A stretch of 64,000 nt of DNA, from contig JANPZZ010000010.1 of the NCBI GenBank assembly GCA_024707305.1, forward strand, positions 45,531 through 109,530. Direction: 5' to 3'. The notes beneath the pieces are model-generated. The model did not search any database and was not told the DNA's origin. It saw only the letters and a list, made by a program, of their open reading frames with translations. Positions within the stretch are counted from its first letter, which is position 1. Every line of letters starts with the position of its first letter. This stretch comes from Chitinophagaceae bacterium (GTDB lineage Bacteria > Bacteroidota > Bacteroidia > Chitinophagales > Chitinophagaceae). Position numbers and translations under genes: made by a program. Below, piece after piece: positions 4,672-39,954 of the stretch.

Positions 4672-5130
4672 TGAAGAATGAGGGGGATGAAGTGGAGGGA
4701 GATCGATGATCGATGATCGATGATCGTTGATCGATGGTCGATGTCCGATGACCGACTAAGACGGAACCTTCGGGAGTTTGGGGCTTGGTCGATGATCGAT
4801 GACCGATGTCCGATGACCGATGTTCGATGGAGGAAACAAATTTTTGTTCGATGGATGCGTCGTCCCGAAGGGACGGGATATCTGTAGCAACGAAATTCAT
4901 CAAATCGCCTGAGTCCCGAAGGGACGACATGTGAGCGGGGAATCGATGACGGGTAATCGATGACCGATGATCGATGATCGATGGTGAATGGATGCCGAAT
5001 GTGCGTGATCCCACTCCCTACGGCCGGAGCGAACTTTTGGCCTGTTAGGCGAACATCGGACCTCGGACATCGATCATCGGACATCGGTCATCGATCATCG
5101 GACATCGATCATCGGACATCGATCACCGAT
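4672..5130. repeat. composite hairpin element: CGATGAY heptamer arrays (4701-4757, 4788-4830, 4941-4985), centre 4986-5052, inverted RTCATCG array (5053-5130)
   Basis: Read directly: gatcgatgatcgatgatcgatgatcg... on the left and ...catcgatcatcggacatcggtcatcgatcatcggacatcgatcatcgg on the right. It fills the divergent intergenic region between 4587 and 5149. Confidence 0.85.
4788..4945 (+). repeat. dispersed ~150-nt module, copy A (heptamer array + twin GTCCC-GAAG-GGAC hairpins)
   Basis: 4857-4945 aligns by hand to the reverse complement of 39160-39252 at about 74 of 89 positions. The only divergent part is an 11-nt segment between the two hairpins. Confidence 0.8.
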
Positions 5131-5148: not shown

Positions 5149-5631
5149 ATGCCTAAATCACATCACTACACCGCAAACATTGAATGGACCGGGAATATGG
5201 GAACCGGAACTTCCGGCTATCGGGATTATGGACGTGAACACGTGATCCGGATTGAAAACAAGGAAAGCATTTATGGTTCTTCGGATCCTGCATTCAGAGG
5301 TGATCCGCTGAAACATAATCCGGAAGAAATGTTGGTGAGTTCGTTGTCAACCTGCCACATGCTTACGTATCTGCACCTTTGTGCTGTAAACAACATCGTG
5401 GTTGTAAAGTATGAAGATGAAGTAACGGGAACAATGGAAGAAACGCCCGATGGTGGCGGGCATTTTACGGAAGTAGTGTTGCATCCCAGGGTTTGGGTAG
5501 CCAATGAATCAATGAAAGCGAAAGCAAGAGAATTGCATCATCAGGCGAATCAGCTTTGTTTTATTGCGAACTCTGTAAACTTTCCGGTAAAACACGAGCC
5601 CGAAGAGGTATACGATCCATCAATCAGTTAA
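5149..5631 (+). CDS. OsmC family peroxiredoxin-like protein
   Basis: The start is taken at MPKSHHYTANIEWTGNMGTGTSGYRDY; the upstream 56 codons of ORF 4981..5631 are repeat translation. OsmC-type motifs are present (NPEEMLVSSLSTCHMLTYLHLC). Confidence 0.8.
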   Translation: MPKSHHYTANIEWTGNMGTGTSGYRDYGREHVIRIENKESIYGSSDPAFRGDPLKHNPEEMLVSSLSTCHMLTYLHLCAVNNIVVVKYEDEVTGTMEETPDGGGHFTEVVLHPRVWVANESMKAKARELHHQANQLCFIANSVNFPVKHEPEEVYDPSIS

Positions 5632-13262: not shown

Positions 13263-13739
13263 TTATTTTTCCCTGATCTTATCAAGCAGTTCACTTAGCT
13301 GTGCTGCTTCTTTTTTACTGAGGTTACTGAGAATGCCATCCATCTCATCCTGGCGAATATCGAGACGTTCCAGTAATTTTTTCCCTTTATCTGTAATGAT
13401 CACATCCACCAGTCTGCGATCTGTTTTGCAAACAGCCTTCTTCACCAACCCCTTTGCAATCAATCGGTCTACAATGCGACTGGTATCACTCATTTTATCC
13501 AACATACGATCACGGATCTGCAGCGTTGATAAGGGCTGCGGAAAACTGCCCCGCAATATGCGAAGGATGTTGAACTGCTGCGACGTAATGTCTTCCGAAG
13601 CAAATATTGCTTTCGACTTTTCCGTCATCCAGTTGTGTGTATAAACCAGGTTTATATACGCCTTCTGGTATTCGTTGCGAAATTTCGCCTGGTGGATATC
13701 CTGTTCAATGCCCATGGTACGATCGTTTAATTGCATCAA
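13263..13739 (-). CDS. MarR family transcriptional regulator
   Basis: 158-aa ORF with a winged-helix region (ITSQQFNILRILRGSFPQPLSTLQIRDRMLDKMSDTSRIVDRLIAKGLV). A TAACTTTG (TAnnTTTG-type) box lies on the minus strand at 13756-13763. Confidence 0.8.
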   Translation of the reverse strand: MMQLNDRTMGIEQDIHQAKFRNEYQKAYINLVYTHNWMTEKSKAIFASEDITSQQFNILRILRGSFPQPLSTLQIRDRMLDKMSDTSRIVDRLIAKGLVKKAVCKTDRRLVDVIITDKGKKLLERLDIRQDEMDGILSNLSKKEAAQLSELLDKIREK

Positions 13740-37246: not shown

Positions 37247-39113
37247 TCACATCAGCAACGCTCCCGCCGCAAGGTATCTCCATTCATACGCTTTGGCATC
37301 ATACGCATCAGTTGCTGCGTGGGTAGTTGCCAAAGCTTTTTCATTCAACACTTTTTGTTTTACCAGTTCGCGTTTTGATTCGTGAATTAGTTCCTGCATA
37401 CGCGCATCCTGCATCCATTTTTTTTGCGGAGGCTCAAAGCCAACTTTGTCTTTGCGCCAGGTGATGCTTTCCGGTAAACAGGATTGCATACTGGTTCGGA
37501 GCAGCCATTTAGTCCAGCCGTCTCTTATTTTGAACGAGGCAGGAAGCGTAAAGAGGAACGCTACCATTTTATGATCAAGGAACGGAAGGCGCAGTTCACG
37601 ACCATGATGCATGGCATTCCGATCCGCATAGCGCAGCAATTCTTCCAAACCATGTACACAAGTGTTGAAATGAAGAAGTCCATTCAGGTTTCTTATTTCG
37701 GGTGCTGTATAGTACGCGGCACGACTTTGTTTTTTTACAAACTCCTGATGCAAATCTTCATGACGTAGTGCATTCACGAGGTATTGCCGTTCCAGGATTA
37801 CAGCAGCAAGTTCAGGGAACAAAGCCGCCATCACATTCTTAAAACCAAATTCTTCCGTCACACCCAGCTCGCGGGCTTTGCCGATTTCTTTACTTCGCAG
37901 CAATTTTCTTTTTGAAATAATTCCTGCCAGTACCACTTATAGTATTTATTATACCCTGCAAGTGTTTCGTCGGCGCCTTGTCCGTCGAGTAGTACAACCG
38001 TGCCCTGTTGTGCTGCCGCCTCAAAAGTTTTGAATTGTGCAAACACGCTGGCAGACCCTATTGGCTCTTCCTGTATGTTAATCAGTTTCCGCCATTCATC
38101 GGCAAGATCAAAAGCTACCGGCTCCACCGTATGATGACAAAATCCAAAATGCGCGGCAACCTGTTGCGCCATTGCCAGTTCATCTTTTTCAAAGCCGGGG
38201 GAAATGCGCCGTAAAACAATCAAACGAAGAAGGGTCGGCAATATGTTGTTGTATAAAACATGCAATGCTACTGCTGTCGAGCCCACCGCTTAAGGATGAT
38301 CCAACTTTTACATCGCTGCGCAATCTCCGCTTTACCGATGCGGACAGCATCGATGTGAATTTTTCCTGTGCCTCTTCCGGTTTAATTTTTACGTTTTGTT
38401 CATCCGTATCAATATCCCAGTATTTTTCAATCTCCAGCTTGTGGTTGTGTAACGAATAAAATAACCGGCTTGCAGCAGGAAGTTTATGTATTCCCTCAAA
38501 AAACGTCTCTTCGGGTTTTGCAGGATTATCGGTGTATCCGATTGTAATAAAATTGAAAAGCATGCGGGGATTTACCGTGCGCATCACACCTGCTGCCCAC
38601 AGTGCTTTCATCTCTGAAGCAAAAAAGAAACTGTTGTTTATCCTTAAAAAAATAAAGAGGTTTTTCACCAAAACGATCTCGCGCGGCAAACAATTCTTCA
38701 TTCTCATGATCCCAAATAGCAAAGGCAAACATGCCATCGAAGTGTTCCACACAATCGTCCTGCCAGTAGTCATAGGCGGCAAGAATTACTTCCGTGTCCG
38801 ACTGCGTCTTAAACTGGTAACCCTCGTTTCCGAGCTCTTTACGTAGTTCAATGTAATTGTAGATCTCGCCGTTGTGTACAATGCTGTATTGGATGGTGTT
38901 CCTTTCCCGGTCCGAAAAATGCATCGGCTGCGCCGCATTCTCCGAGAGATCGATTATGGCAAGTCGGCGATGGCCAAGCATTACCTTCTGGTCGCTTCGG
39001 CTCCAGTGCCCTTCACCATCCGGCCCCCGATGCGCCAGCGCATCCGTCATGCGATGCAAATGCACGGGACCAAAACGCGGCGTTGATTGTATGATTCCTG
39101 CAATTCCACACAT
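37247..39113 (-). pseudogene. asnB: asparagine synthase (glutamine-hydrolysing), three frameshifts as sequenced
   Basis: The start is at MCGIAGII (Ntn Cys2). The fragments 38526..39197, 38189..38782, 37858..38286 and 37247..37936 read through, with the PP-loop SLSGGLDSS in the second fragment. Confidence 0.85.
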
Positions 39114-39159
39114 GATTCGTTGCCCGAAGGCTATGTAAAAAATTAAATTTATCGACCCT

Positions 39160-39310
39160 CGATTCCCCCGCTCATATGTCGTCCCTTCGGGACTCATTTC
39201 ATGGGGAGAAATTCATTGCTACAGATATTCTGTCCCTCCGGGACGGCGCGTGTATGCGATCAAATTTACGACCTCCCCCGGACATCGATCATCGATCATC
39301 GACCTTCCAT
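39160..39310 (-). repeat. dispersed ~150-nt module, copy B (inverted relative to 4788-4945)
   Basis: The reverse complement reads gcgccgtcccggagggacagaatatctgtagcaatgaatttc...tgagtcccgaagggacgacatatgagcgggggaatcg. It is flanked by the catcgatcatcgatcatcgac array (39281-39314). It fills the whole asnB / DUF2911 intergenic region. Confidence 0.8.
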
Positions 39311-39954
39311 CATCTCACATCAATCCCCAGCTTCGCCACCACATCATCCCAGGCCAGCACTAAATTCGCGCCATTTTCACTATTCTCAAAAGTGATAGTG
39401 AAAAATTCCAGCCGTGGATTTTCGCGCGTTACAGGAACCACTACTCTTTGCACATCGGCCGTTGTATCCTGTTGCAATCCCCAGGTATCTGTATTACTGT
39501 TGATTACAATCGTCCATTCATTTTCCTGGGGAATACAGTAAAGAATATAACGGCCCTGCTTCAGGCTCTTACCGTCAATCTTAACATCGCGGAAGAATTC
39601 AATCTCGGTTGATTCATTCGCGCCAAGTCGCCAGGGAACTCCATAAGCCAAAATTTCAGAGAAATTTCGGCGTGACAGATGCGGTCTGCTATACACAACC
39701 CGTATTAGCGGACGCGCAACCAGTTTACCATTGGCCATCTTCAACTTGGGATAGTCCAAAGGAAAATAAACCATGTCCATGGGCGACCGGTCAGGACTGG
39801 TATAATAAGGGTTGTTGGCTACAACATCAACTGTATCGTTCTGCTCCAGCTTTGCAGTATCTTCTGGCGGCGGCTTCGGCGGCTCAGCTGAATTGTTGCA
39901 GGAGAACAATACAATTCCGAGAAAACAGGTTCCAATCAGTTTTACTTTGTTCAT
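39310..39954 (-). CDS. DUF2911 domain-containing protein
   Basis: 214-aa ORF with a signal/lipoprotein N-terminus and family-typical motifs (RVVYSRPHLSRRNFSEILAYGVPWRLGANESTEIEF .. GRYILYCIP .. WTIVINS). Confidence 0.7.
   Translation of the reverse strand: MNKVKLIGTCFLGIVLFSCNNSAEPPKPPPEDTAKLEQNDTVDVVANNPYYTSPDRSPMDMVYFPLDYPKLKMANGKLVARPLIRVVYSRPHLSRRNFSEILAYGVPWRLGANESTEIEFFRDVKIDGKSLKQGRYILYCIPQENEWTIVINSNTDTWGLQQDTTADVQRVVVPVTRENPRLEFFTITFENSENGANLVLAWDDVVAKLGIDVR

Follow-up and report, generated by a model that had tools for sequence, protein, structure and literature searches.

A head-to-tail hairpin doublet repeated across a Chitinophagaceae genome is probably a REPtron-like DNA element partnered with a single-copy Y1/HUH transposase-like gene

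Systems built from repetitive extragenic palindromes (REP) and REP-associated tyrosine transposases (RAYT) are the chief example of bacterial mobile DNA that is long-lived and passed on vertically, and to our knowledge they have so far been characterised almost solely in Proteobacteria, with enzymes of class 2. In the REPtron, known from E. coli, Stenotrophomonas and Marinomonas, a tnpA-REP (RAYT) gene is flanked by REPs or by bacterial interspersed mosaic elements (BIME) (Nunvar 2010, PMC2817692; Ton-Hoang 2012, PMC3333891; Corneloup 2021, PMC8266576). Among other TnpA_Y1 enzymes, subclass 1.2 has been characterised by DH[IV]H, WQ and Y---Q--HH motifs, a length of ~150 aa, low copy number and presence in Bacteroidetes or Cyanobacteria; for REP-like sequences its entry reads 'no', and its members are generally without terminal hairpins and do not share the properties of insertion sequences (IS) (Quentin et al. 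2018, PMC6006769). A class 3 TnpA_Y1 occurs together with ~600 atypical hairpins in Solibacter usitatus (PMC6006769). Here we analyse a 64,000-nt stretch of DNA (the window; C16:45531-109530 in our contig numbering) from a Chitinophagaceae metagenome bin (assembly GCA_024707305.1; 3.86 Mb in 26 contigs, 90% complete), which carries two copies, A and B, of a module in which two short hairpins follow each other head to tail. Our data suggest that the module is probably a non-autonomous, REP/RAYT-like (REPtron-like) DNA element partnered with a resident single-copy Y1/HUH enzyme, because of its copy number, its fixed geometry, the gene that it brackets, the co-occurrence of gene and repeat, compensating stem changes and its absence from orthologous sites.

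The two window copies have a common plan, i.e. hairpin CGTCCC-GRA-GGGAC(G), tail GRRATATCTGTAGCAAY, a 21-nt spacer, hairpin GTCCC-GAA-GGGAC and the terminal tail GACATRTGAGCGGGG. An earlier sequence-only reading of the window had counted 74 identities in 89 positions between 4857-4945(+) and the reverse complement of 39160-39252, and global alignment reproduced this exactly; its three shared blocks are found in both copies, the wider regions have a mean column identity of 81% (MAFFT), and in a BLAST-type comparison within the 3.86-Mb genome copy A hits copy B with E=1.3e-18. It had also placed a CGATG-type array and a similar spacer before each copy, and these are present (13 units upstream of copy A and three upstream of copy B, with an AGG....AAATTT leader at both). 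The segment that it described as 11 nt long and completely different is actually a 19-23-nt spacer that is not wholly different between the copies, and its claim that the module is oriented differently relative to the two genes has to be corrected, since osmC and copy A are both on the + strand and asnB and copy B both on the - strand. That the module is present twice is true for the window and wrong for the genome, where iterated nhmmer with copy A returned at least 166 matches on 20 of the 26 contigs, and a census with a strict pattern (5-bp stem G..CC without mismatches, GRA loop) gave 254 hairpins at about 53 loci with at least 85 head-to-tail doublets. A covariance model of the 33-nt unit gave 145 matches in this genome, and the copy A site is among the best genome matches with both nhmmer and the covariance model.

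The geometry of the family is fixed. Specifically, in 116 hairpins GTAG follows the stem at an offset of 9 nt, against about four at any other offset, and among the tetranucleotides at offset 9 it is the commonest, nearly 4-fold ahead. For 83 of the 85 doublets the spacer following GTAGNNNN is 19-23 nt long, so that the two hairpins are spaced with a period of ~51 nt, and 76 of the 85 end with a hairpin whose tail (GAYATRTGR) is without GTAG. The family resembles REP-type repeats in being short, GC-rich, many-copy and intergenic: 195 of 255 hairpins are located outside proxy open reading frames (ORFs), against a genome that is 78.5% proxy-coding. The exact pattern CCCGRAGGGACGNNATATCTGTAGCA had no match across 185,579 species genomes, and the family sequence is therefore lineage-specific.

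Exactly one PF01797 gene is present in the assembly (C23:12747-13223, 102.9-103.6 bits). Upstream of it are four units on the strand of the gene (+), the last of the terminal type, and downstream there is an inverted doublet (-), so that the copies face inward on both sides; on this arrangement the gene is the likely partner of the repeat family. The predicted protein of 159 aa has the motifs DHIH, WQ and RYIENQKSHH, which are conserved without exception, as are D60-H61-x-H63 and Y121, in 13 homologues. Its score exceeds the cut-off of the NCBIfam IS200 model (77.4 vs 55 bits) and falls short of that of REP_Tyr_transpos (NF047646; 35.1 vs 80 bits). By sequence and by predicted fold (mean model confidence, pLDDT, 86.8) the nearest solved structures are the TnpA proteins of ISDra2 and IS608, and E. 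coli TnpA-REP (4ER8) was also matched. As judged from motifs and predicted fold the enzyme appears intact, and its Y---Q--HH, DHIH and WQ motifs, length and low copy number assign the gene to TnpA_Y1 subclass 1.2. The published 'no partner repeats' for this subclass does not fit the loci reported here, and no description of partner repeats for subclass 1.2 was found in the literature searched.

The same association is seen in relatives (40 genomes, of which G001-G006 belong to the same genus). The family's own module DNA gave one weak match among them, which led to a co-varying version in G006. Homologues of the Y1 gene are present in 21 of the 40, with 42-59% identity, and their flanks carry arrays of hairpin-N9-GTAG[AC]AA units with other stems (GTTCC/GGAAC, CTCCC/GGGAG, GCTCC/GGAGC, GCCCC/GGGGC, GTGCC/GGCAC and CCCCGTC/GACGGGG); these arrays finish beside the gene with a GTAG-less hairpin. 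In 25 units from nine genomes five of the seven stem pairs have changed on both sides, and 93.7% of the cells pair, as compared with 43-51% when the partner column is slid. The covariance model made 3-107 matches in 14 of the 21 relatives with a homologue and 1-4 matches in two of the 19 without. Expressed as a table of genomes, gene and units are found together in 14, gene only in seven, units only in two and neither in 17 (Fisher p = 3.7e-4, where kin are not independent). Within the genus the split is clean, with the gene and 14-90 units in G001, G005 and G006, and neither in G002-G004. Moreover, the dispersed units of G005 have the same CTCCC/GGGAG stem as the units flanking its genes.

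Beyond the family, a profile of the 13 homologues recovered >585 loci, and the best 80 (253 kb), from Flavobacterium, Algoriphagus, Mucilaginibacter, Pedobacter, Niabella, Dyadobacter, Balneolaceae, Ignavibacteria and others, were analysed. In these, the covariance model made 206 matches, and units were found at 54 of the 80 loci with a strict regular expression. At a distance of ≤200 nt from the gene, upstream units number 44 on the + strand vs 2 on the - strand, and downstream units 37 on the - strand vs 12 on the + strand, and most near-gene units are positioned 60-80 nt off the gene ends. The regular expression with GTAG gave 154 units, those with control tetranucleotides 2-18. The counts over the 80 loci therefore make the inward-facing bracket a property of the protein family.

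Comparison of orthologous sites gives information about the history of the two window copies. The DUF2911-asnB pair is kept in all six same-genus genomes; the spacer between the genes is 196 nt here vs 27-46 nt in G005, G006 and G001, and the sister sites are without the module. The divergent ZU5-like/osmC pair is kept in G001, G005 and G006; the osmC upstream spacer of G001 (129 nt) has neither repeats nor module, and in G005 and G006 (L137, L138) it holds heptamer-armed hairpins of CGTGAGN units and no doublet. The module is thus not a conserved regulator of osmC or asnB, and the asnB and osmC upstream sites are hot spots for heptamer-armed palindromes, independent of the doublets. We also note that the DUF2911-asnB spacer of G002-G004 (L132-L134) contains long hairpins with GTATAAA-type heptamer arms. 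The variable segment recurs elsewhere in the genome, the copy A spacer being 81-90% identical to spacers at 3-4 dispersed loci (C15:49098, C16:12794 and C14:26092) with unrelated outer flanks (95th percentile of the spacer-identity background, 73%), and leaders homologous to that of copy A are present at C4:44870-44900 and C16:12794. Related spacers between unrelated flanks modestly suggest that the doublet moves as a unit.

The two stems of a doublet are usually identical, and therefore a local and a long-range fold are both possible. In agreement with the competing long-range helix proposed in the sequence-only reading, the minimum-energy fold of the single-stranded DNA consists of an outer 8-bp and an inner 5-bp helix, not of two local hairpins. 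Heterodimer doublets have, however, arisen in three independent lineages (first hairpin, H1, GCCCC/GGGGC with second hairpin, H2, GTCCC/GGGAC; H1 GGCCC/GGGCC with H2 GTCCC/GGGAC; and H1 GTCCC/GGGAC with H2 GTTCC/GGAAC), and in all three the local hairpins are perfect while the long-range helix would mismatch. Since the heterodimers keep the local stems and break the long helix, selection acts on the local hairpins.

How does this system compare with those already described? With REPtrons it shares a single-copy Y1/HUH gene that has on its two sides, in inverted orientation, copies of a hairpin that is short and GC-rich, is present in hundreds of intergenic copies, is species-specific, has co-varying stems and is accompanied by a conserved GTAG. 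The protein resembles RAYTs in having the HUH motif and a catalytic tyrosine in a Y1 fold, but RAYTs are class 2 with Y---NP whereas the motif here is Y---Q--HH (RYIENQKSHH). The basic composite also differs, as it is a head-to-tail doublet, and head-to-tail REP dimers are absent or rare (Di Nocera 2013). The REPIN-RAYT systems of Pseudomonas (Bertels & Rainey 2011, PMC3116915) have in common with our module a mobile unit made of a pair of hairpins with a spacer, which is non-autonomous, reaches high copy number and is partnered with one resident transposase-like gene; the heterodimer doublets (H1 GCCCC or GGCCC, H2 GTCCC) differ from REPINs by breaking the long-range helix and keeping the local hairpins. 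Motifs, size (~150 aa), low copy number and distribution in Bacteroidetes agree with subclass 1.2 (PMC6006769), which as published has no REP-like sequences, unlike this locus and the 54 of 80 loci that are bracketed by hairpin-N9-GTAG units in the strict test. The class 3 TnpA_Y1 of Solibacter is similar in that the Y1 gene is neither that of a classical IS nor a class 2 RAYT and has many cognate hairpins, while class 3 (and Acido-Lenti-1) differs in protein class and in the foot motif (CnGA). Taken together, the system works like REP/RAYT, yet fails membership of canonical REP, of REPIN and of class 2 RAYT; the kind of repeat is known, and the enzyme subclass and repeat geometry are not described in the literature searched.

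By analogy with the TnpA proteins of IS608 and ISDra2 and with E. coli TnpA-REP, the Y1 enzyme would bind the folded hairpin on single-stranded DNA and the N9-GTAG 3' flank would be read as a recognition or cleavage determinant (the single-strand mechanism of the solved relatives is summarised in PMC8266576). The catalytic Y121 would then cut and rejoin, such that doublets are copied or moved into intergenic DNA. Insertion would often be into CGATGNN heptamer arrays in a single orientation, and tandem arrays might subsequently expand by unequal recombination. More tentatively, and with slightly less confidence for than against, we raise the possibility that subclass-1.2 Y1 genes and hairpin-N9-GTAG doublets form a distinct, phylum-wide REPtron class in Bacteroidota and neighbouring phyla that has its own rules: the tetranucleotide 3' at a fixed 9 nt, a mobile head-to-tail doublet with a period of ~51 nt, and, in this genome, strand specificity relative to transcription (27:5) and heptamers (130:4), not to replication. 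Such a pattern would favour, as the substrate, single strands exposed by transcription or extruded as cruciforms over the lagging-strand template.

Several points weigh against the REPtron-like reading. Canonical REPs carry GTAG (GT[AG]G) adjoining the 5' foot of the hairpin or 1-2 nt away from it (PMC3733652, PMC8266576), whereas here it is on the 3' side, 9 nt past the stem, and the opposite strand of the unit reads CTAC, 9 nt upstream of the stem. In REPINs and BIMEs two REPs are paired in inverted orientation and can form a single long hairpin; here the repeats are direct and the tails are on the same side. With respect to the relatives, the unit script demanded perfect inner five pairs, so the inner-stem statistics are partly circular and this choice of units leaves unaffected only the two outer pairs (~76-80% paired); some of the training units of the covariance model flank the gene in eight of the genomes that were scored positive; and seven relatives have a homologue and no unit match, two a few units and no gene. 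Orientation vs GC skew shows no bias (17:14 vs 12:9), and an IS608-like targeting of the lagging-strand template predicts one. Clean filled/empty junctions were not found among the segmental duplicates at C16:151-153 kb vs 165-167 kb and in C7 vs C8, where the arrays are too rearranged, and no exact pair defines element ends or target. The link to heptamer arrays means that array recombination, not transposition, could be doing much of the spread. Finally, the assembly is a 90%-complete metagenome bin, which makes the counts and the single-copy status of the gene provisional.

A small structured RNA was one option in the sequence-only reading. That the doublet acts as RNA, be it a small RNA or, for the neighbouring genes, an element of the 5' leader or the 3' end, with hairpins kept for RNA folding, we consider very unlikely. 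The doublets do follow gene direction at 27 of the 32 loci where both proxy neighbours are co-directional (p = 1e-4), meaning that the same strand would usually be transcribed; both window copies are upstream of, and co-oriented with, a gene, and the compensatory stem changes also speak for an RNA. Rfam, however, gave no match in the window at the gathering score, the module is missing upstream of asnB and osmC in the sister genomes, a locus can have dozens of tandem copies and the spacer is freely variable. The stability of the whole module is no better than that of shuffles (z -0.6 to -1.0), a terminator scan detected no terminator-like site and no U-tract/T-run overlapping copy A or B, and a promoter scan gave nothing relevant. 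The inverted placing of the same units on either side of a transposase-like gene, seen in many genomes, fits recognition at the DNA level, and the module is not a conserved regulatory RNA. The other two options of that reading fared better: a mobile miniature element and a protein-recognition module with a variable insert are both supported, the module being a high-copy, lineage-specific repeat that brackets the only Y1/HUH transposase-like gene and is missing at the sister orthologous sites.

The doublets might also be passive passengers of the CGATGNN arrays, spread by slippage, unequal crossing-over or gene conversion, with the Y1 gene merely another site of accumulation. We regard this as unlikely, even though 134 of 254 hairpins are ≤150 nt from such arrays and co-oriented with them 130:4, many loci are plain tandem amplifications with joints in GTCC/GATG microhomology, and heptamer-armed hairpins without doublets at the orthologous sites of relatives mark the arrays as an independent phenomenon. 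Approximately 120 hairpins have no heptamer array nearby, hairpin-N9-GTAG units surround the gene in relatives and distant Bacteroidota with CGATG arrays absent, and passive spread gives no reason to expect the co-occurrence of gene and repeat or the conserved inward bracket at 60-80 nt. A miniature derivative of a classical IS200/IS605 element, i.e. a palindrome-associated transposable element or miniature inverted-repeat transposable element (PATE/MITE) with hairpin 1 as left end and hairpin 2 as right end, is in our view highly improbable. The hairpins are direct, like IS200/IS605 ends, the protein scores above the IS200 cut-off, and its fold and catalytic motifs are those of IS608 and ISDra2, its closest solved relatives; recognition of subterminal hairpins on one strand would, by our comparison, be a further shared feature. 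In IS608 the cleavage site is fixed a few nt from the hairpin, ~10 nt 3' of the right-end hairpin. In contrast to these elements, in which the gene is multicopy, lies between direct end hairpins and is often accompanied by tnpB, the gene here is single-copy and sits between inverted doublets, not between hairpins 1 and 2 of one element, there is no TnpB in the genome and no GC-skew orientation bias; furthermore, Y---Q--HH is the signature of subclass 1.2, which is described as lacking the properties of IS (Quentin et al. 2018, PMC6006769).

With the REPtron-like reading, the Chitinophagaceae case would be one class 1.2 IS200-like enzyme among ~250 cognate hairpins. It would also provide a compact candidate substrate-enzyme pair, namely a 33-nt unit (5-bp stem, 9 nt, GTAG) and a 159-aa protein, together with a natural series of stems co-varying with the enzyme across genera. 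Annotation runs the risk of taking such units for small RNAs, terminators or CRISPR-like arrays.

The features of the two window copies and their neighbours are given in Table 1. At copy A, 13 heptamer units upstream, five downstream and nine inverted (~5054-5129) are arranged such that 4704-4984 and the inverted arm form a long heptamer-armed palindrome around the doublet.

Table 1. Coordinates of the doublets, heptamer arrays and neighbouring genes (window positions, unless a contig is named)
Feature	Coordinates	Strand	Remark
Copy A, complete head-to-tail doublet (H1, GTAG tail, spacer, H2, terminal tail)	4861-4937	+	Doublet C16:50392 in census
Copy A, hairpin 1	4861-4875	+	CGTCCC-GAA-GGGACG; 5-bp core 4862-4874 plus one C-G pair
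Copy A, tail 1	4876-4891	+	GGATATCT + GTAG (4884-4887) + CAAC; GTAG starts exactly 9 nt past the 5-bp stem
Copy A, variable spacer	4892-4912	+	21 nt; ends with CTGA, at the 5' foot of hairpin 2
Copy A, hairpin 2 and terminal tail	4913-4937	+	GTCCC-GAA-GGGAC (4913-4925); tail GACATGTGAGCG without GTAG
Copy A, leader	4831-4860	+	AGGAAACAAATTTTTGTTCGATGGATGCGT; between heptamer array and hairpin 1
CGATGNN heptamer arrays upstream of copy A	4704-4830	+	4704-4756 and 4789-4830; break at 4757-4788
CGATGNN heptamers downstream of copy A	4944-4984	+	
Inverted arm of copy A heptamer array	5054-5129	-	NNCATCG units
osmC-like gene	5149-5631	+	PF02566, 58.7 bits; downstream of copy A, co-oriented
Copy B, complete doublet	39169-39245	-	Doublet C16:84774 in census
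Copy B, H1 core	39232-39244	-	GTCCC-GGA-GGGAC
Copy B, GTAG	39219-39222	-	
Copy B, spacer	39194-39214	-	
Copy B, H2	39181-39193	-	
Copy B, terminal tail	39169-39180	-	GACATATGAGCG
Three CGATGNN heptamers and leader upstream of copy B	39270-39302	-	Start directly past DUF2911 stop codon
asnB (GATase_7 + Asn_synthase)	37247-39113	-	Downstream of copy B, co-oriented
DUF2911 gene	39310-39954	-	Upstream of copy B
Second-subfamily examples	C2:12530-12714; C7:146330-146732; C8:40221-40292; C26:64831-65015		

The asnB gene is split over at least four overlapping frames (GATase_7 38529-39113; Asn_synthase pieces 38192-38782, 37861-38286 and 37250-37936), and is either a pseudogene or affected by frameshift errors in the assembly. 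The mechanical ORF of its first fragment (38526-39197, -) begins at an ATG within copy B (39197) whose frame is that of the probable real start, 39113 (MCGIAG...), and gene callers could accordingly annotate a repeat-encoded N-terminal extension on asnB.

Other candidate explanations of the arrays were rejected. The period of 50-54 nt brings to mind a CRISPR (short palindromic repeats, clustered and regularly interspaced) array, and this was discarded as the 19-23-nt spacers are identical, or of two alternating types, within an array; a TnpB/omega-RNA reading fails in a genome without TnpB (no match to PF07282). The last GATG precedes hairpin 1 by 27 nt, and GTAG precedes hairpin 2 by 29 nt. 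The idea that insertion takes place just after ...TG, with the heptamer GATG mimicking the tail, suffers from the unequal distances and from lineages in which hairpin 1 is fused to heptamers, and is kept as a weak conjecture.

With a permissive E-value Rfam returned solely sub-threshold matches to Acido-Lenti-1 (RF01687; 18-23 bits vs a gathering score of 37). The only two genome matches of this family are the two hairpins nearest to the Y1 gene, C23:12576-12613(-) and 13264-13301(+), both sub-threshold (23 vs 37 bits). The Acido-Lenti-1 'sRNA' motif may represent a Y1-associated DNA hairpin in Acidobacteria and Lentisphaerae, and as a conjecture RF01687 would be linked to class 3 genes. Flavo-1 (RF01705) had no match anywhere in this genome; in Flavobacterium sp. 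J49 a full-length Flavo-1 RNA (58.6 bits; L042:2112-2171, -) is located ~150 nt downstream of a subclass-1.2 Y1 homologue, and Flavo-1 may be another cognate repeat of the subclass-1.2 Y1 family.

Beyond the inverted doublet next to the Y1 gene there is a region of ~2.5 kb (C23:13400-15600) with doublets in both orientations and similar copies every few hundred nt, which also contains period-51 arrays with two alternating spacers. Moreover, the genome has a second subfamily of ~20 copies, none in the window, in which the GTCCC stem is kept and which has tails GGTTGTGGTTAG / CGTTGTGA and GACA loops (Table 1); it is mostly found outside heptamer arrays, and there is a single Y1 gene for both subfamilies. 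Finally, a short form at C19:246195-246228 and C23:13430-13463 has GTAGCA[AG]C fused directly to GAAGGGACGAC, the spacer being lost together with hairpin 2's left arm, as could result from slippage at CG(AA) microhomology or from a specific cut within the loop.

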